Positions 29,782 to 47,527 of a stretch of 64,000 nucleotides of DNA are shown here, in pieces (positions within the stretch are counted from its first letter, which is position 1; each line of letters opens with the position of its first letter). The DNA is from Candidatus Zixiibacteriota bacterium (GTDB lineage: Bacteria; Zixibacteria; MSB-5A5; JAABVY01), in NCBI GenBank assembly GCA_011056555.1, contig DSEQ01000009.1, forward strand, positions 16,281 through 80,280. Reading direction: 5' to 3'. Both the position numbers and the translations under genes were made by a program. The notes under the pieces were generated by a model. It had not been told where the DNA came from and did no database searches. It was given only the letters and a program-made list of their open reading frames with translations.

Positions 29782-31785
29782 CTATTTCTTGCCGGCCTTA
29801 ATCAGTTTCTGAAACCTGCTTATATGCTCCACATCTCCCAAGACATAGAGCGTATCTTCGGCTTCAATCCTGGATGGCCCATCCGGGCTGGTGATAACCC
29901 TGTCCCCCCTCTGAATGGCAATCACTGTAATCCCATGCTTCCTTCTGAGATCAGTCTCCATCAATGTTTTCCCGGCTAATTCGGCTTTTTTATCAACCCT
30001 GAGCGAGCAGACATCAATATCCGAAAGATGGCGCTTGAGGTCAGAGACACTGGAAGTCCTGCGTGAAAGCCCGCGGAACATCTGGTAACTGTCCGCCCTG
30101 ACCTCATCTATGAATTTATCGATCTCCTCGCGCGGCACCAGGTATTTCATCAGCACCTGAGTGAAAATCTCGACTGATGTCTCGAATTCCTCTGGTATCA
30201 CATTATCCGCTCCCAGGTCATATAACGGTTTCATTTCCTGCACAAAACGTGTCCTGACAATTATATGAACACGCGGGTTCATGCGCCGGGCCAGCGCGGT
30301 AATGCGCCGGGTAGCGCTGGGATCGGCAATCGTAATAACGAGAATGCGCGCCTTTTTAATGGCGGCCTGGTGCAGGGCGGCCTCGCCTGTGGCATCACCG
30401 TAAAATATCGGCTCACCCTTCTCCCGCTCCTGGTTGACTGTATCCGGATTCATTTCAATTACTCTGTAATCTATATTCGAGGCCCTGGCTGCACGGGCAA
30501 CATTGCGACCATTGATCCCAAAGCCGATTATTATAAGGTGATCATCCAGGGCTTCGGCAGAAACATGCTTATTTTCTCCCATTGCAATATATGATCCGCT
30601 TTTGTATTTCCTCAGGAAGGGCCAGTCCGACATCCTCTCCGCAAGGCCCGGGGCGGCAGACATGATGAAAGGCGTGACACCCATGGTTAGAATCGAAACC
30701 GCTATAAATCTCTGATATAGATCGCCGTCGATCAGGTTAAACTCCAGTCCGACCCTGGAAAGAATAAACGAAAATTCACCTACCTGGCCCAGGGAAAGTC
30801 CGGCAATTAAAGCCGCACGGCTGGACATCCCCAGAAGCAAAGCCACTCCTGCGGCCAATCCGCTTTTTACGAAAAGGACCAACACAGCACCGCCGGCAAT
30901 TAGAAACGGATTTTCCAGAAAGAACGATATATCCAGAAGCATGCCCACGGATACAAAGAAGAAACTTGTGAAGACCTCCTTGAAGGGCAGGATTCCCTCC
31001 AGCGCTCTATGGCTGTATTCGGATTCGGAGATTACCAGGCCCGCAAGAAATGCTCCCAGTCCCAGCGACAAGCCGGCCTGTGATGTCAGCCAGGCCACGG
31101 CCATTCCGATTACAACTATGCTCAATAGAAAGAGTTCGCGGCTCTGGGTACGGGTTATCTGGTATAATATTCCCGGCACCAGGTAGCGCGCGGTCAGAAC
31201 TACAAGTATAATAACCGCCAGGGCCTTGACAACAAGCATTAAGGGCGATGATCCGGTATGACCCTCAGCCCCGGCCAGGAGAGGGGTGAAAATCATCATC
31301 GGCACTATGATTATATCCTGGAAGATCAATATTGAAAGTACCACCCGTCCATGCGGACTGGCGATTTCGACCTTTTCCTGGAGCACACGCAGGACAATCG
31401 CGGTGCTGCTCAATGCTATCAGGCAGCCGATGAAAAAGGCCCGGGAGGGCTCCTGCCCGAGCTGTATGGCCACCAGGTAGGCAAGTGCTATTGTCAGCAA
31501 CACCTGCAATGTACCCCCCAGCATCACCAGGCGTTTCGAGCGCAGCAGGCTGCGGAATGAAAACTCGATTCCAATCGAAAACAGGAGCAGGATCACGCCA
31601 ATCTCCGCCAGAACCTCTACATCATGTATTGACCTGACGATGCCAAGCGCAGATGGCCCGATTAATAGCCCGGTTACCAGAAATCCAACGATCGAGGGTA
31701 TGCCCAGGCGATGACATATAAAGAGGACGACGACGGAACACCCAAAAATTACAACTATGTCCTGGAGAATCGGAATTTCACCCAC
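29782..31785 (-). CDS. CPA2-family monovalent cation:proton antiporter with RCK (TrkA-N/TrkA-C) domains (KefB/KefC-like)
   Basis: 667 aa. The N-terminus is a polytopic Na+/H+ exchanger domain. It is followed by IIIGFGINGRNVARA (a Rossmann GxGxxG) and a C-terminal TrkA-C-like segment. Confidence 0.9.
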   Translation of the reverse strand: MGEIPILQDIVVIFGCSVVVLFICHRLGIPSIVGFLVTGLLIGPSALGIVRSIHDVEVLAEIGVILLLFSIGIEFSFRSLLRSKRLVMLGGTLQVLLTIALAYLVAIQLGQEPSRAFFIGCLIALSSTAIVLRVLQEKVEIASPHGRVVLSILIFQDIIIVPMMIFTPLLAGAEGHTGSSPLMLVVKALAVIILVVLTARYLVPGILYQITRTQSRELFLLSIVVIGMAVAWLTSQAGLSLGLGAFLAGLVISESEYSHRALEGILPFKEVFTSFFFVSVGMLLDISFFLENPFLIAGGAVLVLFVKSGLAAGVALLLGMSSRAALIAGLSLGQVGEFSFILSRVGLEFNLIDGDLYQRFIAVSILTMGVTPFIMSAAPGLAERMSDWPFLRKYKSGSYIAMGENKHVSAEALDDHLIIIGFGINGRNVARAARASNIDYRVIEMNPDTVNQEREKGEPIFYGDATGEAALHQAAIKKARILVITIADPSATRRITALARRMNPRVHIIVRTRFVQEMKPLYDLGADNVIPEEFETSVEIFTQVLMKYLVPREEIDKFIDEVRADSYQMFRGLSRRTSSVSDLKRHLSDIDVCSLRVDKKAELAGKTLMETDLRRKHGITVIAIQRGDRVITSPDGPSRIEAEDTLYVLGDVEHISRFQKLIKAGKK

Positions 31786-32054
31786 TCAGGAGTTCCTTTC
31801 AAATACTTTCGCGCCATGTTTTCGGTGGAACAACCGAAACCGTTCACCCCAAGTTAATTAAGATCAGCTTTTGATTACAAGTAAAAAAGCTGTTTAATTT
31901 GGATTTCAGGTATACCCGGGACGACCTATGCCCTCGATGATCGTCTGTATCGGCAGGGAGGACGGCAAATTATTTACAACAAATGTATTGCCATATTTTC
32001 AACACTTATATAATTTGTTTAAGCCTTGATAAAAAACTATAATCCGGGGCCGAT

Positions 32055-33362
32055 ATGAATAGACCTGAATCATATCATGCTAATACCGTATGGGTTTTTA
32101 TTCTGACGCTCGTCGTTTTTACGGTTGTTTCCGTTCCGGCATTCTGTTACGAGATCGACACAACAAGAGTCCGCGAGAAGCCCGAAGAGAATATAACATT
32201 CGGGGAGGCGGTGCTGGCTGCGCCGTCATTCATCCTGAATCTCCCCTTCTGGGTGCTGAAAAATGTGTCCGATTTCACGGTAAACGAAATCGTCTATTCC
32301 AAACCCATTCAGGCGCTTTTTGCTTTGAAACTCAGGCCAATTTGGGGATTCTACCCCACAGGGGGCTATAATTCCAACGCCGGCGTTAAAGCTGGAATTG
32401 TCTATAGAGTAAAAGATCTTCTCTCGGAGGAGGAGGATTTTAAGGTCAAAGCCTCCTACTCCACCCACGACTACCAGACCTACAGCCTGAGATACAAGAT
32501 CATGCCTCAGAATTCCATATTCAATGAAGTGCATTTCAATTTTAGTTATAGACAGAAGCCCCGCGAAAGCTTTTATGGCATCGGTAACAGGACCTCAGAT
32601 GACAATGAGGTTGCCTTTAACCTCGAAAACGGATTCATGGGCTTCGGCTGGAACCATGAGATTTCCAGTCAGTTCTCAACCGGAGTTGACTTCTCCTACC
32701 GGATACTGAATATCTATGACGGGCAGGACCCATCATTGACCGGCTCTCTCGATTCTATCCAAGCAAAATTCGATCTCAGCGAGGATGAGCTGGCGAATGC
32801 ACGTGTTCTGACTGTGGGCATGAACCTGAAATATGATTGGCGCGACCACCCCGGGCAGACCACATCTGGAGGATACCACGCCCTTGAGCTGTCCTACAAC
32901 AGGGGCAGAGGACAACTTCAAGACCTTGAATATTTCCTGGCTTCGGTTAGTCTATATCAATTCATTCACATTTACAGGCAAAGAGTGCTGGTTCTTAATT
33001 TCCGCACGGAGACCATTGGCAAAACCGATGGATCGCCGGATTTGCCATTTTATCTGAGACCAGCACTGGGTGGTGAAGAGAGTCTGCATGGATATAAGGA
33101 GCATCGCTTCATAGATAATACAACCATGCTGGCGGCGGTAGAATACCGCTTTCCCCTCTTGCAGGGTGTGGACGGCTTATTGTTTTTTGAAGAGGGTAGA
33201 GTTTTTGATGATTTTTCTAAGGATTTCGATCTGAAAAACTGGCATTATTCTACCGGCATCGGTATCAGGTTGTGGGATCAGGAAGGCCTGAGATTAAACG
33301 GCTATGCTGCTTTCAGCAAAGAGAGTCCGCAATTTTACGTGCATTTGTCCGAAACACTCTAA
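32055..33362 (+). CDS. Omp85/bacterial surface antigen (D15) family outer-membrane barrel without recognisable POTRA domains
   Basis: 435 aa with an N-terminal signal-like helix. The C-terminal region LRPALGGEESLHGYKEHRFIDNTTMLAAVEYRFPL...STGIGIRL resembles the conserved Omp85 barrel end. Alternating beta-strand pattern throughout. Confidence 0.7.
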   Translation: MNRPESYHANTVWVFILTLVVFTVVSVPAFCYEIDTTRVREKPEENITFGEAVLAAPSFILNLPFWVLKNVSDFTVNEIVYSKPIQALFALKLRPIWGFYPTGGYNSNAGVKAGIVYRVKDLLSEEEDFKVKASYSTHDYQTYSLRYKIMPQNSIFNEVHFNFSYRQKPRESFYGIGNRTSDDNEVAFNLENGFMGFGWNHEISSQFSTGVDFSYRILNIYDGQDPSLTGSLDSIQAKFDLSEDELANARVLTVGMNLKYDWRDHPGQTTSGGYHALELSYNRGRGQLQDLEYFLASVSLYQFIHIYRQRVLVLNFRTETIGKTDGSPDLPFYLRPALGGEESLHGYKEHRFIDNTTMLAAVEYRFPLLQGVDGLLFFEEGRVFDDFSKDFDLKNWHYSTGIGIRLWDQEGLRLNGYAAFSKESPQFYVHLSETL

Positions 33363-33373
33363 GGATGCACATT

Positions 33374-35086
33374 ATGAAAAATTATATGAAAATATCTTTA
33401 TTGCTGCTGTCACTGATGCTTATGCTGGGTTGCAGCGGCTACAAACCAGTCTTGCAACCGGAGGGTCCCTACTGGGTTGACGACGATAAACAGGATATCC
33501 CGGAACCATCATCCAAGGACCCAAACTTAGCCTGGATGTCCATCAAGCGTTCCAGCTTCGACCAGATTGAAGACGGCCTCGATCTGGAACGGAATTTCAG
33601 GATTCTATCCGATGAGCGTGAAGAAGCGGCCAATATCAACAGTTTCGACGAGGTTCCCAACTGCACCTGGTTCACCAACCGTCATGGTTTCGCACGCATG
33701 ACTCCGGACGAGATCGCCGAAGGAGTCGATCTCACGCCGGGACCGGACACAAGCGGACCATGGCTTGTATTTCGTCCTAAGGTGCAGGGTACCACTCCCG
33801 GTTTCTGGATCGAGGATTCACGGGGAGATCAATATGTCATCAAATTCGACCCGAAGGGGTATCCTGAGATGGCTACGGCGGCGGCCGCCATGGCTTCCCG
33901 ATATTTCCATGCTTGCGGTTATAATGTGCCCCAGGAAACAATTGTATATTATCGTCCCGAAATCCTTCAGGTCAAAGAAGGGGTGAAGTTTGAAGACAAA
34001 GCTGGTGTGAAACGTGAATTCACTCAGCAGGACTTAGAGGATATTCTTAAACGAGTACATCACGAGCCGGACGGGAGAATTCGGTCACTGGCCTCGCTTT
34101 CTCTGGGAATTCATGGTAAAATCAAGGGCCCTTTCAGCTATAGCGGAAGACGGAGCGATGATCCCAATGACTGGTTCGATCACCAGGACAGGCGGGAATT
34201 GCGCGGGCTGTATGTCATCGGATCGTTCATAAATCATTATGACCTGAAGGACCAGAATTCCCTCGATATCTATGTGGAGGAAAACGGAAATAAATTTCTA
34301 AAGCATTTCCTGATCGATTTCGGTTCCACCTTCGGCTCTGACGGCCAGGGGCCAAAGCCGCCTATTAAGGGCTATGCCAATATGATCGATCTTCGTGACG
34401 CCTTCGTATCCCTGATAACTGTCGGCCTCAAGACATGGGACTGGCGGGGAGGTGGCGAGGTAATCTACCCATCCATCGGCTATTTCGAAGCGGATATCTT
34501 TCAGCCCGATAAGTTCGATCCGATCTACCCCAATCCCGCTTTTGAGGACAAAACCGACCGCGACTGCTACTGGGGAGCCAAAATCGTTATGGCATTCCGC
34601 GACAGTGATTTACGCGCCCTGATCGAAACCGGGCAGTATTCCAATCCCCAAGCCGAGGAATATCTGTTCGAAACCCTGAAAAAGCGCCGCGACAAGATTG
34701 GACGATTCTGGTTTTCAAAGGTCAATCCCCTGGATTATTTTGAAACGGAATATGCTGGCAGTGATCTCAGAATCAGGTTCGATGACCTGGGAATCAAATA
34801 CGAGCTCTGGCCCCAAGATGCGGTCTATGACTATGAAATCAGATACGGCAAGGAACTTATCCGCAAGGATCGGGTTAAAACTGGCGAAATAATTCTGACA
34901 CAGGATGATTTAAATCGCATGACCTCGGCATTTAAAGCCACGGATAAAAAAGAGGATTATATTTACAGGATGGATATCAGAACCACCAGAGGGAATGGTG
35001 ATCCGAGCAAGCCAACCCGATTGCATTTCTGGTATCATCATGATGAAAATAAATTCTCATTGGTGGGAGTCGAACATCTGGATTGA
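33374..35086 (+). CDS. Lipoprotein with a protein-kinase-like (PKL) fold signature
   Basis: Lipobox LMLGCSG (Cys codon at 33431). Kinase-like motifs are QYVIKF (Lys at 33842-33844), HYDLKDQN (34235-34258) and IDFG (DFG at 34316-34324). I chose the start at 33374 (AAGGA lies 8 nt upstream); 33365 and 33386 are alternatives. The track ORF start at 33272 overlaps the upstream gene. Confidence 0.6.
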   Translation: MKNYMKISLLLLSLMLMLGCSGYKPVLQPEGPYWVDDDKQDIPEPSSKDPNLAWMSIKRSSFDQIEDGLDLERNFRILSDEREEAANINSFDEVPNCTWFTNRHGFARMTPDEIAEGVDLTPGPDTSGPWLVFRPKVQGTTPGFWIEDSRGDQYVIKFDPKGYPEMATAAAAMASRYFHACGYNVPQETIVYYRPEILQVKEGVKFEDKAGVKREFTQQDLEDILKRVHHEPDGRIRSLASLSLGIHGKIKGPFSYSGRRSDDPNDWFDHQDRRELRGLYVIGSFINHYDLKDQNSLDIYVEENGNKFLKHFLIDFGSTFGSDGQGPKPPIKGYANMIDLRDAFVSLITVGLKTWDWRGGGEVIYPSIGYFEADIFQPDKFDPIYPNPAFEDKTDRDCYWGAKIVMAFRDSDLRALIETGQYSNPQAEEYLFETLKKRRDKIGRFWFSKVNPLDYFETEYAGSDLRIRFDDLGIKYELWPQDAVYDYEIRYGKELIRKDRVKTGEIILTQDDLNRMTSAFKATDKKEDYIYRMDIRTTRGNGDPSKPTRLHFWYHHDENKFSLVGVEHLD

Positions 35087-35089
35087 TTT

Positions 35090-36319
35090 GTGATCATGAA
35101 GGTAAGTATTTTTATACCCATATCAATTTTATGCCTGTTTCAGGCATTCACATCTCTCCATGCAGAATCCAATGATCCACATGCAATCAGTGGAAGTGAT
35201 TTTGATCATTTAATGAATATCCAGAATGTTGAATTACAGAATAAACTCGAGAATATATTTCCCGAGAGTGAAGGTTATCTGGTAAGCGGACCTCTGTGCG
35301 ACGATACGTTCGAGGACTCTGCGTATTTTTATTGCGGTGCGGTCAGGGTTATTTGCCCAAACCTTAAACTATATAAGCAAGGTATAGACATAGCCGCCGG
35401 CATGGACAGTCTCACTGCAATTACAGATTATCCGGATCCAAGCGGATCATACTATGCCTTTGAAAAATATTATACTTATCATAATGGTAACCTGGTCGAT
35501 ACGTTCAAGTTTGAAACCGCAAATTCCGTTCGGTACGAGCTTGCCTTAAATAAGGAGCTGATATTCAGCCCGCTTCGAAGTGATGTCATCCGCATGCCCG
35601 ATTCAGAACGTAAGGAAATGCATGATTATTTCCTTCAATATGACTCCGGGAATATTCCGGCAGAGCAGCTTTACATACATTACGTACCCTATATCATCGA
35701 GGGCTATCAGAATTACAAAGAGTTCCTTTTAAGTCATGCCGAGATCGATCTCGATTTCATAAGCGGCGTGACCGCCTTTGTACCCACTGAAGAAACTCTG
35801 CAATGGTTCAGGGAGAATGCTCCGCAGGAGGCATATCCCAATAAGGAAGCGTCCAAATTTGAGGAGGAAATTCATGAATTCTTCGAGCGCGGCGGTGATT
35901 TGCGCGTCATCCAGACTTTAACGAAAGAAGGCTTCGACACACTTCAAAGCGGGGAATATTTCTATGCTGTCAGCCCTGCATACAAAATTCGTTTTGGACG
36001 GGAGCTTTTGCGCGAGGAGGTCAAACGTATCGAAGAGGAAACGGGCAAGAAGGTCCCGCGCGCCAATCATGCCTTTTTATTCCCGGGCGAAGCGGTACTG
36101 ACCGCCGGGGCTTTCTGGATAGATACAGACAAGGAAAACAAGCTGGTCAAGGTCAATGCCCAGTCCGGCCATTATTTCTACAGCAATGTTTCCCCGACTA
36201 TCCGCGAGGATATCTCCGAACGTTCCGACCATTACCTGACCACGCTGGGTCATTTTTTCAAGGCCCTTGACAGCCTGCAAATTCCCTGCGATAAGATTCT
36301 CATAAGTAAACTCCAATGA
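35090..36319 (+). CDS. Hypothetical secreted protein (signal peptide, no recognisable domain), visibly AT-rich
   Basis: The N-terminal VSIFIPISILCLFQAFTSLHAESN looks like a signal peptide. The start is GTG at 35090 or ATG at 35096, 3-9 nt after the upstream stop. The ORF is long, with several Cys residues consistent with a periplasmic protein. Confidence 0.5.
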   Translation: MIMKVSIFIPISILCLFQAFTSLHAESNDPHAISGSDFDHLMNIQNVELQNKLENIFPESEGYLVSGPLCDDTFEDSAYFYCGAVRVICPNLKLYKQGIDIAAGMDSLTAITDYPDPSGSYYAFEKYYTYHNGNLVDTFKFETANSVRYELALNKELIFSPLRSDVIRMPDSERKEMHDYFLQYDSGNIPAEQLYIHYVPYIIEGYQNYKEFLLSHAEIDLDFISGVTAFVPTEETLQWFRENAPQEAYPNKEASKFEEEIHEFFERGGDLRVIQTLTKEGFDTLQSGEYFYAVSPAYKIRFGRELLREEVKRIEEETGKKVPRANHAFLFPGEAVLTAGAFWIDTDKENKLVKVNAQSGHYFYSNVSPTIREDISERSDHYLTTLGHFFKALDSLQIPCDKILISKLQ

Positions 36320-36340
36320 TGGCTTGAGCGGTAAGCGGAT

Positions 36341-37192
36341 ATGAAAAAAGTCGGCAGTTACAAGATATTATTGATTCTATCCATACTCTTTTTCTCCTTC
36401 CGGCCTTTACCGGCAGACGACCGTGAATATCTCTCCAGCACAGAGATCACTGGCATATCGGCCGGCTCGATTGCGCTGGGAGCCGCGGGGCTGTGGGCAC
36501 TCGATTTCGATAGCACCCGTCGTCCGGTAATTTCAGGCCCGGCGCCATGGGAAGAGTCGATTCAGCGTTTTCTGGGCGGGAGATACTATCCGGGCAAAAC
36601 CAACTGGCTGGACCACAGCTTCGGCTCTTCCATAACTCCCATTTTGATGGGCGGTTTGCTTCTGGGCGCCGATATCAGCTGGCCCCGGTATGATCGCGCC
36701 AAAGATGTCTGGCAGGATATGTTTTTGTACGGCGCGGGCCTTCTTGCAACCAAAGGCGTTACCGGGATCACCAAGGGTTTCTTCGCACGTCCGCGTCCCA
36801 TGGTCGCGCTTGAGCCTGAGCTTTACAACCGGAATAAAAATAATGATTACGCCCAGGATCGGGCTTCATTCTTCTCGGGTCATACCTCCAGCGCCTTTTT
36901 CTCCACCGCTTTTCTGAATATGCGCATCCGCCAGATCATGCGCCAGGAGATGACCTATAATGACTACAAGGACTGGCGCTGGCTGCCGCCGACAATCCTG
37001 TTCGGCTGGGCCTCCTACGTGGGCTACACCCGTATCGATGCTTATAAACACTATATAACCGATGTTGTTTTTGGAGCTCTGGCAGGATGGGTGATGGCGG
37101 AGCTGTTTTATCATTTCGGCGACAATATAGAAAAGCCCCGGGACTCATCATCAAGGGGCAAGGTTCTATTCAAAATAGGATTCAGCTTTTAG
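36341..37192 (+). CDS. PAP2-family (type 2 phosphatidic acid phosphatase-like) membrane phosphatase
   Basis: All three PAP2 motifs are present: KGFFARPRP (KxxxxxxRP), SGH (FFSGHTS) and RIDAYKHYITD (SRxxxxxHxxxD-like). Several TM helices. Confidence 0.8.
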   Translation: MKKVGSYKILLILSILFFSFRPLPADDREYLSSTEITGISAGSIALGAAGLWALDFDSTRRPVISGPAPWEESIQRFLGGRYYPGKTNWLDHSFGSSITPILMGGLLLGADISWPRYDRAKDVWQDMFLYGAGLLATKGVTGITKGFFARPRPMVALEPELYNRNKNNDYAQDRASFFSGHTSSAFFSTAFLNMRIRQIMRQEMTYNDYKDWRWLPPTILFGWASYVGYTRIDAYKHYITDVVFGALAGWVMAELFYHFGDNIEKPRDSSSRGKVLFKIGFSF

Positions 37193-37671
37193 ATAAATGT
37201 CTTCACGATCTCGGTCTGCAAACCCTGAAGCTCACCATAGGCCTTATTGATTTCCGCTATCTTCTCCTCCAGCTTTTTCATGAGCTTTTGTCTTTCGATG
37301 CCATTCCGAAGAACGATCAGGAGATCATCATTATCCCACGGTTTCTCAATATACTGGAACAGTCCGACGTCATTTATAGCCTTGATTGCATTTTCCTTGT
37401 CGGCATAACCGGTCAGAATAATACGAGGCACCTGGGGCCGCATCTCCTTGACCTTTGCCAGAAAGGATATCCCATCCATCTCCGGCATCAGATAATCGGA
37501 AATCACCACATCAATCTCATTCTTCTTGATATATTCCAGCGCGTCTTTCGCTGAGGTGAAGGTCTCGACAGTGTATTCCGTCTCGAGGCTCAAGAATGAA
37601 TTGAGGCTCGTCAGGACCATCTCTTCATCATCAACGATTACGACCGTGCTTTTCTCCTTATCATCAACCAT
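37189..37671 (-). CDS. Single-domain response regulator (REC) with a C-terminal coiled-coil
   Basis: VVIVDDEE...VVISDYLMPEMDG...ILTGYADKENAIKAIN contains the phospho-acceptor Asp context. The product is 160 aa. Confidence 0.85.
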   Translation of the reverse strand: MVDDKEKSTVVIVDDEEMVLTSLNSFLSLETEYTVETFTSAKDALEYIKKNEIDVVISDYLMPEMDGISFLAKVKEMRPQVPRIILTGYADKENAIKAINDVGLFQYIEKPWDNDDLLIVLRNGIERQKLMKKLEEKIAEINKAYGELQGLQTEIVKTFI

Positions 37672-37673
37672 CT

Positions 37674-38900
37674 CTATCTCCTGTCTGTGTTAATTTCGAT
37701 TCCGAACAGTGTAACATCATCACTATACACCCCGCCATTAAAATCACCCAGGGACTCCGCCAGGCCATTAATTATTTCCCCGCAGGCGGAGCTGCCTAAT
37801 TTCTTCAAGACTTCGGGCAGATTTTTGCTTTCAAAAAAGTCTCCATCCTTGTTGACCGCCTCGGTCAGTCCGTCAGTATATAATATCAAACTGTTGCCCG
37901 GGTCAAGCATTACTGCTTTATCCGGCCCCGGCTTATACATTTCCGGTCTTATAAAGCCCAGCATCATACCGTTAGACGCAACCAGTTCCGATTTGTTTTC
38001 CTGCTTGCGAATAAGATACGGATAAGTCAAGCCGCCGTTAGATATGGTGATCTCCCTTTTGCCCGGATCGATCCTGGCAACCAGTGCCGCCACATAGAGT
38101 TCCTCCGGGAGGCCCTTCTCCAGGATTTCGTTCATGCCGCTCAGGATTTGCGAGGGTTGATGGTTTCCTCCGGCAAATGATACGAAGGCGAATTTCAGAA
38201 GCGCGGTGCTCAGAGCCGCCTGTATGCCATGCCCGGTGGCATCCGCCACCAATACCGACCAGCAGCCGTCCTGCATCGGTATGATATCATAAAAATCACC
38301 GCCAATCTCTATCGCCGGCTTATAGTAAGTTTCAAATTTCACGCCGTCAATTTGGGGAAGTTTACGCGGCAGCAATGCCTGCTGGAGCTTGCGGGCAAGC
38401 TTCAGCTCACGTGCAATCATATTGTTGTGTTCAAAGAGCTCATCACGATGTCTCAGGACTTCATCCAGCTCCTTGATCTTCATGTGCAGATGCTCTCTCA
38501 GGCTCTTGGATTCAATAGCATTTTTGAGAACCAGCTTAAGCTGTTCATTGTCCCATGGTTTTTCCAGGTACTGGAACAGGCTTACCTCGTTGATGGCCTT
38601 GATGGCATTTTCCTTGTCGGCATAACCGGTAAGAAGAATCCGGGGCAGGTCGGGATACATTTCCCGCACTGCACTCAAAAACTGCAGACCGTTCATATCC
38701 GGCATCAGGAAATCGGATATAACCACATCCACCGGCTTCTGCTTCAGCCGCTCCAGAGCCTCATGCGGTGACTGGTAGCCGATCACATTGTATTCGGTCT
38801 CCAGTTCCAGAAAAGATCCCAGGCTCTGCACCACAATCTCATCGTCATCGACCAGCATTATGGTTTTTGACGATCTCTCATCCATATTACTATCGCTCAT
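37674..38900 (-). CDS. Response regulator fused to a PP2C/SpoIIE-type phosphatase (RsbU-like)
   Basis: The N-terminal REC domain is paralogous to the downstream gene. The C-terminal part has GGDFYDIIP...LVADATGHGIQAAL...LYTDGLTEA, which are SpoIIE/PP2C motifs. Confidence 0.9.
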   Translation of the reverse strand: MSDSNMDERSSKTIMLVDDDEIVVQSLGSFLELETEYNVIGYQSPHEALERLKQKPVDVVISDFLMPDMNGLQFLSAVREMYPDLPRILLTGYADKENAIKAINEVSLFQYLEKPWDNEQLKLVLKNAIESKSLREHLHMKIKELDEVLRHRDELFEHNNMIARELKLARKLQQALLPRKLPQIDGVKFETYYKPAIEIGGDFYDIIPMQDGCWSVLVADATGHGIQAALSTALLKFAFVSFAGGNHQPSQILSGMNEILEKGLPEELYVAALVARIDPGKREITISNGGLTYPYLIRKQENKSELVASNGMMLGFIRPEMYKPGPDKAVMLDPGNSLILYTDGLTEAVNKDGDFFESKNLPEVLKKLGSSACGEIINGLAESLGDFNGGVYSDDVTLFGIEINTDRR

Positions 38901-40480
38901 CGTCCTCGAATTGGAATTATGATTCTGAAGGTTGTACCCTGATTCACTCTGGATTCGACCTCGATTCGGCCCTTATGGTCCTCAGTTATCTGGTGAACGA
39001 TCGAAAGCCCCAGGCCGGTTCCGACCCCGGCGCCTTTGGTTGTATATCCCGGATCAAATACCCGTTCCAGTTTATCCTCGGGAATTCCGCGGCCGGTATC
39101 GGAAAATTCAATAACAGCATCGCCGCCCTGGCGGCGTGTTCTGATAATAATCTTACCTTTATCCTCGATAGCCTGGCTGGCATTGACCAGTATATTCATA
39201 AAGACCTGGTTAAGCTGGTTGGGATAGCAGCTTATCTTCGGCAAATCCCCATAATCCTTTTCAACTTCCACCCGATCCTTGAGCTGGTGATGCACCAGTG
39301 TCAACGTATTTTCTATGCCGTCATGGATATTTACAGTATCCATTTCCGCCTGGTCGAGGCGGGCGAATTTGCGCAGGCTGCTGACAATATTGATTATTCG
39401 GGAAGAGGCTGTTTTATTGATCCGGGTGAGATCTTCCATATTTTCCAACAGCTTACCGAGCTGCTTGCTTTCACGAAATTCGGTCGGCGCAGCAGAATCG
39501 GAGACCATGGCCTTCAGCTTCTCGATAGAGCGGATGAAAAGATCGTTGTTGCTGTTGAGTGCTCCCAATGGCGTATTGATTTCGTGGGCTACGCCCGCCA
39601 CCAGATTACCGAGGGCAGCCATTTTTTCCGCCTGCACCAGCTGCGTCTGTTTCTGTCGCAGCTCCCTTGTCCGTTCCTCCACCTTCTGCTCGAGCTCCTC
39701 GTTAGCTTTTTTCAGCTCCTGCTCAAGCCGGTATCGGGTCGTAACGTCCTGCACAATATTCAGTTCGCGCCAGTTATGTTTAATATCCCGAAAATAGCCG
39801 GTGGTGAACTGGTAAACTCTGTTGTTGGGAAATATCCTCTCCTCCACATAGACGCCGTCCTCGCTCAGGATCTGCTCGCTTTCCACCCGCTGATCGTCAA
39901 TAGACTGCTCCCAACCGCATGGGCAGCCCTCATCCCGGGCCCGGTCAAAAATCTCTTTCAGCTTTTTATTCTCAAATTCAACTTTCGGTTCGCCATTTAT
40001 ATTCTTACGTACCCCCAGACCGACCGGCATTAGATCAAGAATATATTCATAATATTCGCGCAGGCGTCTATTCTCCCTCTGCAAAAGAACGCGACTTGTT
40101 ATGTCACGGCAAATACGCTGAATGATCTTCTTGTCCCCGTAATTTATGACTCCTGCGGAAATTTCTATATCCAGGAGGGTCTTATCTTTTCGCAGAAAAT
40201 GCAGTTCGCCGGTATAGCCCTTACCGCTTTCCACCACCTGGTTAAAAAGCCGCCTGGATTCCTCCCACTCAGATTCGGGATGGAGTTCCCAGACTTTCTT
40301 ACCCACTAACTCGTCAACGCTGAAGCCGGTCAGCTTCTCGGCCCTGAGATTCGCCTCCAGTATGGTGCCGTCAGCCGGTTCGATCGAAAAGATGGCGTCG
40401 CTGGCCATCTCGATCATCTTGCGGTATTTCTCTTCCGACTCCCGCAGGCTTTTTAAATCGGAGTTATCTGCCTTAACCAT
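38897..40480 (-). CDS. PAS-domain sensor histidine kinase
   Basis: Two PAS-like segments, the HisKA H-box AGVAHEINTPLGAL, and an HATPase_c domain with an N box (NILVNASQA) and G boxes (DTGRGI, GTGLGLS). Confidence 0.9.
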   Translation of the reverse strand: MVKADNSDLKSLRESEEKYRKMIEMASDAIFSIEPADGTILEANLRAEKLTGFSVDELVGKKVWELHPESEWEESRRLFNQVVESGKGYTGELHFLRKDKTLLDIEISAGVINYGDKKIIQRICRDITSRVLLQRENRRLREYYEYILDLMPVGLGVRKNINGEPKVEFENKKLKEIFDRARDEGCPCGWEQSIDDQRVESEQILSEDGVYVEERIFPNNRVYQFTTGYFRDIKHNWRELNIVQDVTTRYRLEQELKKANEELEQKVEERTRELRQKQTQLVQAEKMAALGNLVAGVAHEINTPLGALNSNNDLFIRSIEKLKAMVSDSAAPTEFRESKQLGKLLENMEDLTRINKTASSRIINIVSSLRKFARLDQAEMDTVNIHDGIENTLTLVHHQLKDRVEVEKDYGDLPKISCYPNQLNQVFMNILVNASQAIEDKGKIIIRTRRQGGDAVIEFSDTGRGIPEDKLERVFDPGYTTKGAGVGTGLGLSIVHQITEDHKGRIEVESRVNQGTTFRIIIPIRGR

Positions 40481-40508: not shown

Positions 40509-40937
40509 TCAGGCTACTCGTTCGACCAAATTCCTGAGCCTCTTTACCACAGTCTTGATTACGCCCTGCGCAATCTGCACATGGTCGGCCAGCAGATCGA
40601 TGAAATCCTCGCGGTCGACACGAAGCAGACGGCAGTCTGCGGCCGCGGTTGCGGTTACCACTCTCGGCTCCTCATCAAAAAGAGCCCAGGTACCAAAGGC
40701 ATCGTCTTTTTCTGCAGTGGAAATTTCCTGGTCGCCTCTGTGCAGCTTCACCTTGCCCTCCAGCACAAGGTAGAGCGCATCCGAGGGATCATGTTCCTTG
40801 TAGATCACGTCCCCCTTGATATATTCCACTTCCTCTGCTATCGAGGCCAGAGAGGCCAGCTGCTCGGTGGGCACTTCCGAGAAAACATCGATATTCTGCA
40901 AAAGAATTACTTTTTCAACAATAGAAAGCATACTCAA
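40509..40937 (-). CDS. Stand-alone cyclic-nucleotide-binding (CAP/cNMP) domain protein
   Basis: 142 aa. GDVIYKEHDPSDALYLVLEGKVKL...FGTWALFDEEPRVVTATAAADCRLL follows the cNMP beta-roll and phosphate-binding-cassette pattern. Confidence 0.8.
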   Translation of the reverse strand: MSMLSIVEKVILLQNIDVFSEVPTEQLASLASIAEEVEYIKGDVIYKEHDPSDALYLVLEGKVKLHRGDQEISTAEKDDAFGTWALFDEEPRVVTATAAADCRLLRVDREDFIDLLADHVQIAQGVIKTVVKRLRNLVERVA

Positions 40938-40986: not shown

Positions 40987-43758
40987 CTATGTTTCAAACC
41001 GCTTAACCACTCTTTCCGCAGTCTCCTTTACCAATGGGTCGGGATCATTTTGAGCGTCGTGGATTAGCTTCCTCATATTCTCGGAAGCATTAGCGGTAAC
41101 ATTATAGATCGCACAACACCTGAGCCAATTATCGTGACCCTTGATAAGGCGCTCCAGGGCTTCCTCCCGGGTACGGGTCTTGACACGGAAAAACTCCTCG
41201 CCTTTGCGAAGCACTGTTTCGACCGGAACATCATCGAGTATCGGGAGAATATATTTCTTTACGTCGCGACTCAGGAGATTATCGAGAAACTCGATAGCAT
41301 TGGCCTGAAGCACCTTTTTGCCGCTCACGAACCCCTGATAGGCATAAAATATGTCTGTGGGAGGATAGACCAGACCCAGGAGCCGGAATATCCGTTCGAG
41401 GTTGTACTGCTGTTTTTCTTCCAGCGCCTTTTTCAGGAGTTTGGAACCCGGTGATTCATCGAATTGCCTGTGGGAATATAGGATCTGGTAAATTTCATAA
41501 TAATCCTTGATTTCATTCAGAAGGACCTGTTCCACCTTCCCATGGTCAAAGCTGAGCTCCGAATAGACGCTTCGCAGGCTGTTCAGGGCTTTGACCACAT
41601 GATATTTCAGGGAGGGTTCCACCTTATCCAGGTTGTCGGTCAAAACATCAACTGTCTCCTGCTCAGGAATCAGCTTCATCACCCTTGGTATATTTTTGCG
41701 AATATTGTAATCGACTGCGCGGTCGTGCAGGTAATCGCTGAGGGTCCCCAGCACGCCTGTTCCGAAATCGGCCAGCGCTTTGCGAACATTTGCGCGCAAA
41801 TCCCTGTCGGTCAATCTCTCGATCAGCCAGGGTATATATTTGCGCCGTTTCAAACGGCCGATGCATTCTATCGCATTTTTCACCACCTCGATCGACTTAT
41901 CATTAAGCAGAATCTCTATGTAGCCGCTGAATTCCGGTTTGTTCACCACGCCCAGAATCCGGGCGACCTGAATACGGCTCAATTCCGCCTCCTCAGATAT
42001 ATCGCGCATGGCCGCCTTTATGAGTTCCTCATCGACCAGCTCCCTTTCCTCCGGACGGCCATAATCGGTAAGATATGCCAGAGCTGCATTGACTATGCGA
42101 GGGTCATCGCTGCGCAGGTATTCCCGCAGTTTTTCCAGAGTATCTCCCTCGGTTCGGGAGCATATGAAGTGCACGGCCTCCGAACGGACCTCAATGTCCT
42201 CATCAGTCAGCATCTTCTCTACTATCTCCATATGCGAGCGGTCGCCATGCTCGAGAAGCACCTTCAGCGCATCGAGCCTGATGTCGGCCGACTCATGCCT
42301 CAAATGAGGAACTACTTTTTCCACCCTCTCAACATTCTTCACCGAACGCAGCATCTCCAGCGCATATCCAATCTGCCGATCATTGGGGCTGTCCAGCGAA
42401 TTTATCAGCGCATTGATGGTGGAGCGGTCATCGATCTGAACGGTGAGCCTGGAATAGTCGATCTCGCGCTTTTCAATGGCTCTGCGGAATGAATTCAGAT
42501 ATTCCTTCCGCATGAAGACAGTCAGGGTTAACCAGATAAGCAGTAATCCAATCACGATCAGACTGATTTCCTTTACCGTCAGATGAAAGACGAGGGTGCA
42601 GAGAAGCAGAAGGGCGCCGGCAAATCCGCGGAACCACCTGTCCACGAACATATCGATAAATATTTTTGTGCGCTTTTTTACCTCCAGCGGTATGGGCAAA
42701 AACAGCAATTCCCTGCCGGTCTTGTCCATAGAATATTTTATACTGCCATCCACTCCCCTCAGCATTATACCGGCAATCAAGCCGGGGAAGAGAAACATCG
42801 CCGCTGAGCCAAGCAATAATCCCGTCGGCAGAAACATAATGATACCGCCCACCCCCAAAAAGCGAATTAGCCTGTATGTAAAAAACAATTGCAGTATTAG
42901 TGAAGCCATGCTGAGCCAGCTGTAGAACTGTCCGAAGAATGATGTCAGATCAGCTTTTTCCGGATAAGCAGCTTTGGATACGGTTTTGAACTGCCAATCC
43001 ACAAATGAAGCCACCATCATGGTTATAGCTATAATACCCACAAGCAATAACAGGTGGCGTGACCTGAAAATCGTCTTTGTAATCTGCCCCAGCTTTTCCC
43101 CGGGGGGCTCGCGATGGCGAGCGGAACGCTGAAGTTCCTTCTCCGAAACAGTCTTCTTCTTCCAGATTACGGCTACCAGTAAAGCTACAATTACGAGCGG
43201 TACCATACAGATAAATAAGAGGTTTTCCGTGCCTACATCCAGGGCCTTGACGAGGAAACTGGTGACCTGTCCACCGGTGAAGGCGCCGATAATCCCCCCC
43301 AGTCCGAGTAATGTGAAGACTCGTTTGGCCTGTGCAGAATTATACACGGCATTGGCCAGAAGCCAGAATTGGGAGGTCGTAAGCACGCCATAGATGCTCA
43401 CCCATGTATAAAATAGATAATAAACCCAGGCGCTGGAGATCTGGACCAGCCAGCGCAGAATAAAAAGATTCACTATAATAATGGCAAGAGTGAAAATAAT
43501 CAGTCGATTCAGCTTCAACGAACGGCTGGCCCTGGAATAAAGTGTAACAACAGGAGCGGTCACCAGGGCGGTGATAATGAAAACAAGCGGGAGCATCTCC
43601 GAACTGACCCTCACCAGAAACAGCGAATCCCTGGCGGGTTTAAGCAGGTAATAGCTCAAAAGGATCAGGTAATAACTGGACAGCATCAGCAGGGTCAGTG
43701 CGATTTCACCCTTCCTGATGTCAAATATCGATTTGAGAAAACTCTTCATCGAATTCAT
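40987..43758 (-). CDS. TLC/AAA-family (ATP:ADP antiporter-like, MFS-type) membrane domain fused to a C-terminal HEAT-repeat domain
   Basis: 923 aa. The N-terminal LLSYYLLKPARDSLFL resembles the TLC-family start and is followed by ~11-12 TM segments. The C-terminal ~480 aa carry repeated HEAT-like units (ADIRLDALKVLLEHGD, DEDIEVRSEAVHFI, DPRIVNAALAYL, DPLVKETAERV). Confidence 0.7.
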   Translation of the reverse strand: MNSMKSFLKSIFDIRKGEIALTLLMLSSYYLILLSYYLLKPARDSLFLVRVSSEMLPLVFIITALVTAPVVTLYSRASRSLKLNRLIIFTLAIIIVNLFILRWLVQISSAWVYYLFYTWVSIYGVLTTSQFWLLANAVYNSAQAKRVFTLLGLGGIIGAFTGGQVTSFLVKALDVGTENLLFICMVPLVIVALLVAVIWKKKTVSEKELQRSARHREPPGEKLGQITKTIFRSRHLLLLVGIIAITMMVASFVDWQFKTVSKAAYPEKADLTSFFGQFYSWLSMASLILQLFFTYRLIRFLGVGGIIMFLPTGLLLGSAAMFLFPGLIAGIMLRGVDGSIKYSMDKTGRELLFLPIPLEVKKRTKIFIDMFVDRWFRGFAGALLLLCTLVFHLTVKEISLIVIGLLLIWLTLTVFMRKEYLNSFRRAIEKREIDYSRLTVQIDDRSTINALINSLDSPNDRQIGYALEMLRSVKNVERVEKVVPHLRHESADIRLDALKVLLEHGDRSHMEIVEKMLTDEDIEVRSEAVHFICSRTEGDTLEKLREYLRSDDPRIVNAALAYLTDYGRPEERELVDEELIKAAMRDISEEAELSRIQVARILGVVNKPEFSGYIEILLNDKSIEVVKNAIECIGRLKRRKYIPWLIERLTDRDLRANVRKALADFGTGVLGTLSDYLHDRAVDYNIRKNIPRVMKLIPEQETVDVLTDNLDKVEPSLKYHVVKALNSLRSVYSELSFDHGKVEQVLLNEIKDYYEIYQILYSHRQFDESPGSKLLKKALEEKQQYNLERIFRLLGLVYPPTDIFYAYQGFVSGKKVLQANAIEFLDNLLSRDVKKYILPILDDVPVETVLRKGEEFFRVKTRTREEALERLIKGHDNWLRCCAIYNVTANASENMRKLIHDAQNDPDPLVKETAERVVKRFET

Positions 43759-44596: not shown

Positions 44597-47527
44597 ATGA
44601 AACAACAGGTAATGAGGTATTGTGCAACATGCGCCGGTACACGACTGCCTTTACTGCTGATAATAGTGTTCGCGGTTCTCTGCCTGACTCAAACAGACCC
44701 GTTATATGCTGCACAGAAGGCCGGCAAGATAAGCGGCAAGATTCTAGATGCTGAAACCGGCGAGCCCCTGCCGGGAGCGGTGGTTCAGATCAAACTTGAA
44801 AGCAGTACAATTGGCGCACAGACGGATTTTGACGGAAATTATCTCATTCGAGAGGTTCCCGTCGGTATTCACGCCCTGGAGATTTTCCTGGCCGGATACC
44901 GAAACACCGTTGTACGAGAGGTCCGGGTAAATTCTGAGGAGGTGACCAATGTGCCCCTGGCACTTCATGCCGAGGCATATGAAGACGAGGAACAGGTTGT
45001 GGAGGCCCGGGTCCTGCCGAATAACGAGGCTGTCCTGCTAATGGAACGCCAGAAGGCGCCCGAGATCGGGAATGCTATCTCGGCTGAGGCAATGTCCAAT
45101 TCCGGCGCCTCGGATGCCGGTGAAGCAATTGCCAAGATCGCCGGAGGTACGATGCAGGGCGGAAAATATGCCAACCTGCGCGGCCTGGAAGAAAGGTATA
45201 TTTCCACCCATCTGAATGGGACCGAACTGGCCAGCGCCGATCCGGATAAAAAGGCTTTTCACATGGACCTGATTCCGACCAATCTCCTGGATAATGTTCA
45301 GGTCATCAAGTCATTCACTCCGGACAGACCCGGTAATTTCTCCGGCGGAATTATAGATATCGGTACCAAGACTTATCCCGAGCAGCTTTCACTTAAGTTC
45401 TCGGTTTCCAGCACCTATAGCTCGGGGGCTTCGTACAATGACAATTTCCTGACCTACCGGGGCGGCAACGATGACTGGCTCGGTTTTGATGACGGTACCA
45501 GGGATGTACCCGATCCTGTCTCCGGCACCGAGCTTCCGCTTTATTCGTATACTATTAATAGTCCCGAAACTGCCCATTCTCTGAGTGAATTGACGAGGTC
45601 ATTCAACAGTGTCATGTCCCCGATTTCCAAAGCTCCGCCGTTAAACAGCGACTACTCCTTCTCGCTCGGCAATCAGACCACCCTTTTCGGGAAGCGGTTA
45701 GGCTACCAGGGCAGTTTCAATTACGGGAGAAAGTACAATTATTATGATGGCGGGCGCCTGGCCTATTATTTCGTATCAGGAGACCCATCCGTTATAGAGG
45801 GCTTGACAAATGACTGGAGAATGTCGGATGCCAGGGGCTCGGAAGAGGTTCTCTGGGGAGGATTGTTTGCAACCTCATATCATATCCATCCCAACCATGA
45901 GTTCGGCGCCGATTACGTTCACACCCAGAGCGGTGAGAACATGGCGCGCTACATTTCAGGGCACTTCTACGACGGCAACCTCTCACCCGAGGCAACCTAT
46001 GAAACACGAGTTTTAAGGTATACCGAGCGTACTCTGAATTCCCTGCAATTCCACGGCAAACACTATCTTCCCGGCCTCTTCAGATCCAATCTCGACTGGA
46101 ATTACTCCTACTCCCGGAACGAGCAGGATGAGCCGGATATGCGCTTCTTCTCGAACCATTTCTATGTCGACGAGGAGAGCGGCGATACCAGCTATTATAT
46201 AGCCCCCAACCTTTACACGCTGCCCCAGAGATATTACCGGGAGCTTGATGAAAATAGCAGCAGCTTCGATATCAACTGGAGTATCCCATTTAAGCAGTGG
46301 AACGGTCAGTCCAGCAAATTCAAATTCGGCGGGCTGTTCTCACAGAAAAACCGGGATTTCCTTGAAAGAGTCTACAATTTCAAAAACCCTGCAAATAAAT
46401 ATGAGTACAACGGCGACCCATCGGAATTCTTCAGCCCTGAAAACCTGGGAATCATCGACAGTACCTTCAATCCCTACAGCCAGACCTGGAGATACGACTG
46501 GACACTTTATGTCTACGACAACTCCGACCCGCGTGCCAATTATACCGGTGATGAAAGTATCAGCGCTTTCTATGGCTTGCTCGACATACCCCTTTCAACC
46601 AGATTGCGTGTGATAGCCGGCGCCAGGTTCGAAACTACTGGAATTGAGGTGGCTCCAGTCGATACCAGTTATGAAAGCGGCTCAATCGATACCGATGATC
46701 TCCTGCCATCCGTTAACCTGACCTATGCGCTCAATAAAAAGATGAACCTTCGTGCCGCCTACGGGCGCACACTGGCGCGCCCCACCTTCCGTGAAATGGC
46801 GCCCTACCCGTCATGGGATTTCGCCAATGAATTCTATTTCATTGGCAATCCCGAACTGATGAGAACGCTGATAGACAATTTTGATGTCCGCTGGGAGTAT
46901 TTCATAAGGCCCGGCGAGCTTCTTGCTCTCAGCTTATTCTATAAGGACTTCCAGAATCCAATCGAACGGGCTATCAAACATGAGAACGGCGAAATCCAGT
47001 ACCAGAATGTCGATCAGGCGACCGTCTATGGAATAGAATTCGAGATAAGAAAGAACCTGGATGTCTTAACCGGATGGCTCCGAAATTTTACGATAACATC
47101 GAACCTGACCTTGATCAATTCGCAGGTCGATATACCGGAAACAGAGCTGGACATCATCAGATCCTATGATCCCGATGCAGATGATACCAGGCCTCTTCAG
47201 GGCCAGTCGCCCTACATCCTGAATATCGACCTTACTTATGACAACCATAGAACCGGTACTATGGCCAATCTCTCATTCAATGTCTTCGGCGAGAGGCTTT
47301 ACGAAGTCAGCCAGGGAGCTACTCCTGATGTTTATGAGCAATCCCGGCCGGACCTGAAACTCATCCTGAAGCAGGGACTCTTTGGCGGAATCGATTTAAG
47401 GTTGAAATTCAGCAATATCCTCAATCCATCATATAAGAACGTCCATCATTTCCGCGGCGATGATTACATCAGAATGGAACATAAAGAGGGCCGCAGATTC
47501 TCGATCGGATTGAGTTATAGCATATAG
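44597..47527 (+). CDS. TonB-dependent receptor with an N-terminal carboxypeptidase-regulatory-like domain
   Basis: Signal peptide, then GKILDAETGEPLPGAVVQI...TDFDGNYLIREVPVG (CarboxypepD_reg), a plug region (YANLRGLEERYISTHLNG) and a long beta-barrel ending RRFSIGLSYSI. Confidence 0.9.
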   Translation: MKQQVMRYCATCAGTRLPLLLIIVFAVLCLTQTDPLYAAQKAGKISGKILDAETGEPLPGAVVQIKLESSTIGAQTDFDGNYLIREVPVGIHALEIFLAGYRNTVVREVRVNSEEVTNVPLALHAEAYEDEEQVVEARVLPNNEAVLLMERQKAPEIGNAISAEAMSNSGASDAGEAIAKIAGGTMQGGKYANLRGLEERYISTHLNGTELASADPDKKAFHMDLIPTNLLDNVQVIKSFTPDRPGNFSGGIIDIGTKTYPEQLSLKFSVSSTYSSGASYNDNFLTYRGGNDDWLGFDDGTRDVPDPVSGTELPLYSYTINSPETAHSLSELTRSFNSVMSPISKAPPLNSDYSFSLGNQTTLFGKRLGYQGSFNYGRKYNYYDGGRLAYYFVSGDPSVIEGLTNDWRMSDARGSEEVLWGGLFATSYHIHPNHEFGADYVHTQSGENMARYISGHFYDGNLSPEATYETRVLRYTERTLNSLQFHGKHYLPGLFRSNLDWNYSYSRNEQDEPDMRFFSNHFYVDEESGDTSYYIAPNLYTLPQRYYRELDENSSSFDINWSIPFKQWNGQSSKFKFGGLFSQKNRDFLERVYNFKNPANKYEYNGDPSEFFSPENLGIIDSTFNPYSQTWRYDWTLYVYDNSDPRANYTGDESISAFYGLLDIPLSTRLRVIAGARFETTGIEVAPVDTSYESGSIDTDDLLPSVNLTYALNKKMNLRAAYGRTLARPTFREMAPYPSWDFANEFYFIGNPELMRTLIDNFDVRWEYFIRPGELLALSLFYKDFQNPIERAIKHENGEIQYQNVDQATVYGIEFEIRKNLDVLTGWLRNFTITSNLTLINSQVDIPETELDIIRSYDPDADDTRPLQGQSPYILNIDLTYDNHRTGTMANLSFNVFGERLYEVSQGATPDVYEQSRPDLKLILKQGLFGGIDLRLKFSNILNPSYKNVHHFRGDDYIRMEHKEGRRFSIGLSYSI

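Follow-up and report, generated by a model that had tools for sequence, protein, structure and literature searches.

The window analysed here is a stretch of 64,000 nucleotides (nt) from contig DSEQ01000009.1 of Candidatus Zixiibacteriota bacterium, numbered from its first letter. On its forward strand, positions 33374 to 35086 encode a protein of 570 amino acids (aa), starting MKNYMKISLLLLSLMLMLGC, which we describe from its open reading frame (ORF), family, conservation and modelled fold as a predicted exported lipoprotein with a protein-kinase-like (PKL) catalytic domain. A first-pass annotation of this DNA had pointed to a lipobox, a glycine-containing strand, a lysine, the sequence HYDLKDQN and a DFG triplet in this gene. 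Translation bears out all of its coordinates, and each of these motifs is present where it had been placed.

Four closely spaced genes share this strand, and the kinase-fold gene comes second among them. An AAGGA Shine-Dalgarno-like sequence lies 8-9 nt 5´ of the ATG at 33374, and the stop of the upstream gene is at 33362. We rejected a longer version that starts with a GTG at 33272: it would overlap the upstream gene, homologues give it no support (M1 is conserved at the ATG), and the AAGGA ahead of the ATG, together with the end of the upstream gene, argues that the GTG is not the real start. A scan of 31700-37400 for promoters and terminators was uninformative, returning the counts expected from shuffled sequence.

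Signal peptide, catalytic motifs and accessory regions

Two alignments underlie what follows, one of 46 close homologues (A1, 48-88% identity) and one of 54 distant representatives (A2, 31-41% identity, within P0121-P0269). The predicted lipoprotein signal peptide (33374-33433, + strand) is MKNYMKISLLLLSLMLMLG-C, in which a basic, hydrophobic signal runs into a lipobox of the form [LVI][ASTVI][GAS]C; it ends in LMLGC, with the Cys20 codon (TGC) at 33431-33433 and a serine at position +2. Lipidation of the protein is thus predicted from its sequence, and none of the close homologues lacks Cys20 (46/46). Among the distant relatives, each of the 54 starts with a hydrophobic, signal-like segment, and 14 have a lipobox, as judged by eye and with the lipobox regular expression only; by eye and regular expression, the remainder resemble substrates of signal peptidase I. 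Export, as claimed in the first-pass annotation, is upheld by these counts, and the whole family, not only its member in the window, appears to be extracytoplasmic. Under the E. coli Lol rule, a serine at +2 means that there is no inner-membrane retention signal, a rule that may fail in these phyla. Lipoproteins are extracytoplasmic, and ATP is normally absent from that compartment.

The kinase-like core spans approximately residues 125-350 (33746-34423, + strand) and comprises three N-lobe strands, a glycine-rich loop, Lys157, a helix at 166-181, a catalytic loop and DFG. Lys157 (33842-33844, +), within QYVIKF and the broader pattern YxIKFDP, takes the position of the kinase beta-3 lysine at the end of strand 153-157, and is found in 46/46 close and 49/54 distant homologues. 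The catalytic loop NHYDLKDQN (34232-34258, +), of which HYDLKDQN forms residues 288-295 (34235-34258), contains N287, D290, K292 and N295, all invariant among the close homologues; D290 is retained in 50/54 and N295 in 51/54 distant representatives, with lysine or arginine at position 292 in 44/54. The DFG triplet (D315, F316, G317; 34316-34324, +) follows an invariant histidine in the pattern HxLxDFG, with D315 conserved in 46/46 and 51/54 sequences and H311 in 46/46 and 52/54. The invariant set of the close alignment consists of C20, the glycine-rich loop residues K136, G139 and G143, and K157, N287, D290, K292, N295, H311, D315 and F316. The acidic residue that the first-pass annotation had picked out in PEMATAAAAM is E165. 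It lies at the N-terminus of the helix in the αC position and is not strictly kept: of the 46 sequences, 37 have E, seven have D, one has Q and one has G.

Because the catalytic residues are kept in both the 46 close and the 54 distant homologues, the motif set is more than a chance match, which was the purpose of an alignment of the K, D, N and DFG positions proposed in the first-pass annotation. Judged from these alignments, the catalytic motifs are under strong purifying selection, and conservation of the Asp, the Asn and DFG favours an active enzyme over a pseudokinase, two possibilities that the first-pass annotation had left side by side. If the protein were instead a pseudokinase, or a scaffold that binds a ligand and controls the outer-membrane barrel encoded next to it (see below), without catalysis, one might expect what is seen at the edges of the family, where K157 is lost in 5/54 and D290 in 4/54 distant members, and E165 varies; activity is, besides, a prediction. 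Against this stand an invariant catalytic set in the 46 close homologues and the presence of K157, D290, N295 and D315 in at least 90% of sequences at 31-41% identity, conservation that would not be expected for a pure scaffold. We regard a pseudokinase or scaffold without catalysis as very improbable. The individual distant members that lack K157 or D290 may be pseudokinase offshoots.

Several regions outside the core are also conserved. Just past the signal peptide, residues 32-45 (33467-33508, +) form an acidic/proline motif, PYWVDDDKQDIPEP, in which D38 is invariant and I42 and P45 are at least 90% conserved among the close homologues. Distant members that are not lipoproteins have a similar 'YPDDPIxVDxD' past their signal peptide, and the motif may be a barrel-docking element. 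Model confidence is lower across residues 32-45. An N-terminal extension of approximately 100 residues contains the invariant D92, W99 and N102. We also noted a cluster of arginines, of which R273, R274 and R277, with R438, are invariant and R103, R237 and R260 nearly so, and which hints at an anionic substrate or a site that binds phosphate. In the model, a helical region (388-449) precedes a C-terminal beta-sandwich domain, similar to fibronectin type III (FN3) or immunoglobulin domains, at residues 453-568 (34730-35077, +). Two of the distant representatives, P0264 (742 aa) and P0266 (1158 aa), are much longer and have extra C-terminal sequence.

Family and placement among kinases

The family is large. 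More than 2,300 relatives were found in a protein collection clustered at 90%, none of them annotated and none with a Pfam domain, and an exhaustive profile search of representatives at 50% identity returned at least 3,576 proteins at E <= 1e-3, of which 1,158 were at E <= 1e-30. The members are mainly from the Fibrobacterota-Chlorobiota-Bacteroidota (FCB) group. When GTDB was scanned with a single genome for each species, at least 509 genomes encoded a relative; the closest locus is in the Zixibacteria metagenome-assembled genome ACK-K077 (L004), where the kinase is 88% identical. Neither Pfam nor NCBIfam has a match to the protein, even at E up to 1, and phmmer and profile searches of PDB sequences gave noise only (GMP synthase, E 1.7; IgA Fc receptor, E 0.3).

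The fold is what places the protein. An AlphaFold2 model built on the 46-sequence alignment has a mean predicted local distance difference test score (pLDDT) of 88.8 and a predicted template modelling score (pTM) of 0.89. Its N-lobe strands run through residues 130-136, 143-147 and 153-157, with the glycine-rich loop between the first two and K157 at the end of the third; the long helix 166-181 occupies the αC position, helix 279-285 leads into the catalytic loop N287-N295, and a segment at 296-313 comes before DFG at 315-317. The model thus has the bilobal fold, glycine-rich loop, αC-type helix and catalytic loop of the PKL superfamily. The sequences also have its order of conserved residues: first the beta-3 lysine, next a single loop that holds the catalytic Asp and Asn, and last the metal-binding Asp of DFG (46/46; 49-51/54).

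Two fold searches with the model gave PKL kinases only at the top ranks. Foldseek matched C. elegans Fam20 (E 6e-5) and CtkA (E 1.8e-4), with SidJ among the weaker matches (rank 32). The values from the other search were 13.6 for H. pylori CtkA, 11.8 and 10.4 for PI4K-IIα, 10.7 for Hydra Fam20, 10.3, 9.8 and 9.5 for HipA_C proteins, 10.1 for zebrafish Fam20C, 9.9 for CotH, 9.6 for actin-fragmin kinase and 8.1 for MavQ (rank 21). A predicted non-kinase fold would have overturned the PKL assignment made in the first-pass annotation; the predicted fold is kinase-like, and the assignment holds. When the 54 distant representatives were scanned singly against Pfam, sub-threshold matches appeared to HipA_C (PF07804) in 10 and to HipA_2 (PF20613) in 8 (best E 7.4e-5), which suggests to us a distant relationship in sequence with the HipA/CtkA branch.

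By profile, the protein falls outside most of the better-known kinase groups. We rejected the eukaryotic-type protein kinases, as there was no match to Pkinase (Hanks type) for the protein at E up to 1 or for any of the 54 relatives at E up to 5. PI3_PI4_kinase (PF00454) matched one of the 54 relatives, at E 0.3, and the loop is NHYDLKDQN rather than the DRHxxN of PI4K-IIα, the PI3/PI4-type lipid kinases and MavQ. For Fam20 and CotH there was no Pfam or PDB sequence match, and the similarity is of fold only. A HipA-type toxin was rejected too, since the protein is exported and has no antitoxin gene.

The protein differs from its nearest structural neighbours in several respects. It has no significant sequence match to CtkA (JHP0940) or the HipA-like kinases, and compared with them it adds a Sec/lipoprotein signal, the 100-residue N-terminal extension, the helical region and the C-terminal FN3-like domain. 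It also lacks a HipB-type antitoxin and a type IV secretion system context, and has an Omp85 barrel and TLC transporters as its partners. The Fam20 proteins (Fam20C, a Golgi casein kinase, and Fam20B, a xylosylkinase) and CotH, compared by predicted fold, share no sequence similarity with it and have a different catalytic-loop sequence; the window protein is bacterial, predicted to be lipoprotein-anchored and equipped with other accessory domains. By prediction it functions in the manner of CtkA or Fam20, which are secreted or atypical kinases; unlike these, it would reach a Gram-negative envelope by Sec/lipoprotein export, and has N- and C-terminal domains of its own, a barrel partner and a transporter linkage.

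The identity of the substrate can be approached through similar comparisons. The Lys or Arg at +2 of HxDxK/RxxN resembles that of Ser/Thr protein kinases, similarity to PI4K-IIα and the presence of a PAP2 neighbour point to a lipid, and similarity to Fam20B allows for a glycan. A lipid substrate is putative.

Gene neighbourhood in the window and across genomes

The first gene of the four-gene block (32055-33362, +) encodes a 435-aa Omp85-family outer-membrane beta-barrel, assigned by an NCBIfam Omp85_fam match of 78 bits, which is below the cutoff, and by PF01103 on orthologues; PDB sequences gave no match to it. It ends 11 nt 5´ of the kinase-fold gene. The third gene (35090-36319, +) encodes an exported 409-aa protein, and the fourth (36341-37192, +) a PAP2-family membrane lipid-phosphate phosphatase (Pfam PAP2, 2.3e-21) whose closest relatives of solved structure are phospholipid phosphatases 2, 1 and 3. 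Convergent to this block, on the minus strand, run further genes. Those between the two blocks (37189-40480, Pfam) encode a response regulator, another response regulator fused to a PP2C (SpoIIE) phosphatase, and a PAS histidine kinase. Next comes a gene for a cyclic-nucleotide-binding (cNMP) protein (40509-40937; Pfam cNMP_binding, 1.1e-19), lying downstream of a gene for a 923-aa protein (40987-43758) that joins a TLC domain, of the ATP/ADP-type nucleotide transporters (NTT), to HEAT repeats (NTT-HEAT; 76 bits for Pfam TLC, whose cutoff is 21, and HEAT_2), and that has a superfamily match to TIGR00769. Farther along lies a gene for a TonB-dependent receptor whose N-terminal domain is CarboxypepD_reg (44597-47527, +). 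After it comes a 471-aa ORF (47575-48990, +) without a Pfam match, and the two may be a SusC/SusD-like pair.

To the 409-aa protein Pfam and NCBIfam assign no family, and it is a Zixibacteria-specific member of the operon; one database entry, P0270 (JGI), is 100% identical to it. Its nearest folds are RelA/SpoT-type nucleotidyltransferases, and a profile search of PDB sequences gave a weak match to YwaC (E 0.057) over a 'VRVIC' strand. Because that match spans profile positions 69-182, we assign the RelA/SpoT similarity to the N-terminal part, the first half of the protein. In the synthetases, the motif DxxGxR supplies an Asp that binds Mg; this residue is not evident here, and the most conserved residues are in the C-terminal half. 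On the basis of the modelled fold, the protein may be an exported RelA/SpoT-like enzyme acting on nucleotides. Exported alarmone synthetases have a recent precedent (PMC12691689).

A further possibility is that the kinase-fold protein itself carries out another reaction of the superfamily, such as AMPylation, glutamylation, phosphocholination or some other nucleotide-dependent transfer, as SelO and SidJ do. PKL folds are capable of such reactions, SidJ is among the Foldseek matches, and the exported neighbour has a nucleotidyltransferase-type fold. However, the motif set of Lys, HxDxKxxN and DFG is the canonical one for kinases, very close to the HRDLKxxN of Ser/Thr kinases, and the best structural neighbours are true kinases, such that we find a chemistry other than phosphorylation rather improbable.

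Gene context was compared across the best 80 of the 509 genomes, and neighbouring ORFs were clustered without bias over 81 loci. The 80 genomes are from Zixibacteria, Calditrichota, KSB1, Latescibacterota, Marinimicrobia, Gemmatimonadota, Balneolales and Rhodothermales, and Aminicenantes and Acidobacteriota, all free-living lineages of sediment or water. The suggestion in the first-pass annotation that the protein might act on host targets finds no support in this distribution or elsewhere in our data. Clustering recovered the Omp85-like barrel at 77 of the 81 loci, TLC/cNMP genes at 44, two-component genes at 35, PAP2 at 34 and the 409-aa protein at 19. What had emerged as a third conserved-neighbour cluster (58 loci) was discarded, as it consisted of antisense shadow ORFs inside the kinase gene.

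Linkage to the barrel is the most constant feature of the context. In tblastn searches with the window proteins, an Omp85-like gene was found directly 5´ of the kinase gene and on the same strand in 70 of the 74 loci with enough upstream sequence. So strict a pairing could mean that the kinase leaves the cell through the barrel, in the manner of two-partner secretion or of surface lipoproteins, and acts while displayed or released on external targets or cells. Many family members look like non-lipidated secretory proteins, CtkA and the Fam20 neighbours are secreted kinases, and an FN3-like C-terminus is typical of surface proteins, all of which would fit. Yet a barrel of only 435 aa would leave little room for POTRA domains of the TpsB type, ATP is scarce outside the cell, and linkage to an inner-membrane transporter fits a periplasmic site better. 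We would give a surface-displayed or released kinase little credence.

A TLC-family gene was found in 43 of the 80 loci; where the sequence extends for 6 kb or more to either side, the figure is 28 of 41. The linkage spans Zixibacteria, Calditrichota, KSB1, Balneolales, Gemmatimonadota and Acidobacteriota, and takes five arrangements: TLC-HEAT downstream on either strand, TLC-HEAT upstream, a stand-alone TLC gene directly upstream of the barrel, or a stand-alone TLC gene directly downstream of the kinase gene. Four loci from KSB1, Calditrichia and Balneolales have two TLC genes in tandem directly after the kinase gene. The first encodes a stand-alone protein of ~450 aa (at 11725-13080 in L046). 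The second encodes a TLC-HEAT protein of ~930 aa in three of the loci (L046, 11725-16005; L062, 9712-13906; L081, 11684-15819) and is cut by the contig end in L066 (6499-9255). The stand-alone TLC proteins are of at least two sequence types, with the N-termini 'FLxLFTDVRxGEG' and 'FFDIRKxEWP'. The window protein and five neighbours in other loci score 55-98 bits against the Pfam TLC cutoff of 21. Where TLC-HEAT and cNMP genes are present, they are accompanied by the block of response regulator, PP2C and PAS histidine kinase genes in 35 of the 81 loci.

The pairing of NTT-HEAT with a domain that binds cyclic nucleotides (cNBD) has been described as widespread and uncharacterised (Major, Embley and Williams 2017, PMC5381601), and the 923-aa TLC-HEAT protein and adjacent cNMP-binding protein of the window have exactly that architecture. 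The module was not linked to an exported kinase in that study, whereas in our set the module, or a stand-alone TLC paralogue, is clustered repeatedly with the Omp85-kinase pair. We found no later functional work on NTT-HEAT in the searchable literature.

The exported phosphatase, like the 409-aa protein, is an accessory of the cluster, and its type differs between loci. Between the kinase and TLC genes of L052 (7217-8449) and L043 (11708-12949) lies a gene for a Metallophos lipoprotein of ~410 aa, and no PAP2 gene was found in either. In our reading, one exported phosphatase has been exchanged here for another that is not homologous to it.

A possible phosphorylation system of the periplasm

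We lean, by a modest degree, towards the view that the window protein is a catalytically competent, exported kinase-fold lipoprotein from an undescribed exported branch of the PKL superfamily, remotely related to HipA and CtkA, and that it plausibly receives its nucleotide from the linked TLC transporters. The presence in the same operon of a second exported protein with a nucleotide-enzyme fold, the RelA/SpoT-like one, also speaks for this view. The first-pass annotation had noted that ATP is normally absent outside the cytoplasm and had suggested that a kinase there might use an unusual donor, a puzzle for which the TLC genes at the locus suggest a candidate answer. The characterised TLC/NTT proteins are all known to carry nucleotides, and many are ATP/ADP antiporters. 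There is also a eukaryotic parallel, in that Fam20C and other kinases of the secretory pathway rely on a lumenal ATP/ADP exchanger in the membrane of the endoplasmic reticulum.

In the reading towards which we lean, the kinase would be lipidated and, with serine at +2, sorted to the outer membrane, where it would work with the Omp85-like barrel or docked on it. There it would take phosphate from a nucleotide and pass it to a substrate in the envelope, which could be a protein, a lipid or lipopolysaccharide (LPS), or a glycan. The TLC exchanger or exchangers would bring ATP to the periplasm and take back ADP, and the cNMP-binding and two-component/PP2C genes would regulate the supply. The modification would be reversed by PAP2 in the window and by the Metallophos lipoprotein in other phyla. 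A broader proposal, by analogy with the secretory-pathway kinases, is that the FCB group and its neighbours run a dedicated periplasmic phosphorylation system. In it, TLC/NTT proteins including the NTT-HEAT-cNBD module would export ATP, a barrel-docked outer-membrane kinase would act on the envelope, PAP2 or Metallophos would undo its work, and the RelA/SpoT-like enzyme of Zixibacteria may share the same nucleotide pool. We put this proposal forward tentatively, as possible but doubtful.

The same genes could also be arranged in the opposite direction, as a nucleotide-scavenging pathway in which extracellular nucleotides enter through the barrel and are captured or re-phosphorylated by the kinase-fold lipoprotein, TLC imports them and the phosphoesterases trim them. 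The cluster does bring together a barrel in the outer membrane, an exported fold of the nucleotide-binding type, a nucleotide transporter in the inner membrane and exported phosphoesterases, and characterised NTTs are mostly importers (PMC5381601). Nevertheless, capture alone does not need a conserved Asp290, Asn295 and Asp315, and re-phosphorylation would still require a phosphate donor on the outside. The nearest relatives of the PAP2 protein are lipid-phosphate phosphatases, not nucleotidases. Omp85 barrels are also not known to serve as nutrient pores. Scavenging therefore seems unlikely to us.

A number of observations weigh against the kinase reading, and against the periplasmic system built on it. 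Activity, nucleotide binding and localisation are predictions, as is the choice between a periplasmic and a surface orientation, and the geometry proposed for the active site comes from the order of the motifs and from secondary structure only. E165, being variable, is the weakest of the motifs. In 13 of the 41 well-flanked loci there is no TLC gene within reach, and PAP2 and the 409-aa protein are restricted to particular lineages. The TLC genes are themselves divergent; since they score 39-56 bits against TIGR00769, far below its equivalog-level cutoff of 387, the substrate and direction of transport are predicted only. Moreover, NTT-HEAT is widespread in organisms that have no known kinase of this kind, for example cyanobacteria and chlamydiae (PMC5381601).

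The family combines export signals throughout, an intact kinase site, an Omp85 barrel partner and a linkage to nucleotide transporters and phosphatases that persists through rearrangement. In the searchable literature, which mostly leaves out subscription journals and in which absence is no proof, we found no account of an exported or periplasmic kinase of this type, of HipA-like lipoproteins or of this cluster, and both the family and the gene cluster appear to be undescribed. The narrower claim stands firm and is unusual in itself: these proteins form a new exported PKL family whose partner set is also new. No curated model matches the family, and it merits a name and a profile model of its own. 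The bacterial periplasm is generally assumed to be free of ATP, and regulated phosphorylation of the envelope by a resident kinase lies outside the textbook picture. If the fuller reading is true, the family would represent a new class of envelope-modifying enzyme, and the linked transporters would give NTT-HEAT, which is also present in cyanobacteria and chlamydiae and has been unexplained since 2017, its first candidate function. It would also offer a testable mechanism for energising chemistry in the periplasm, and challenge the assumption that this compartment is without ATP.

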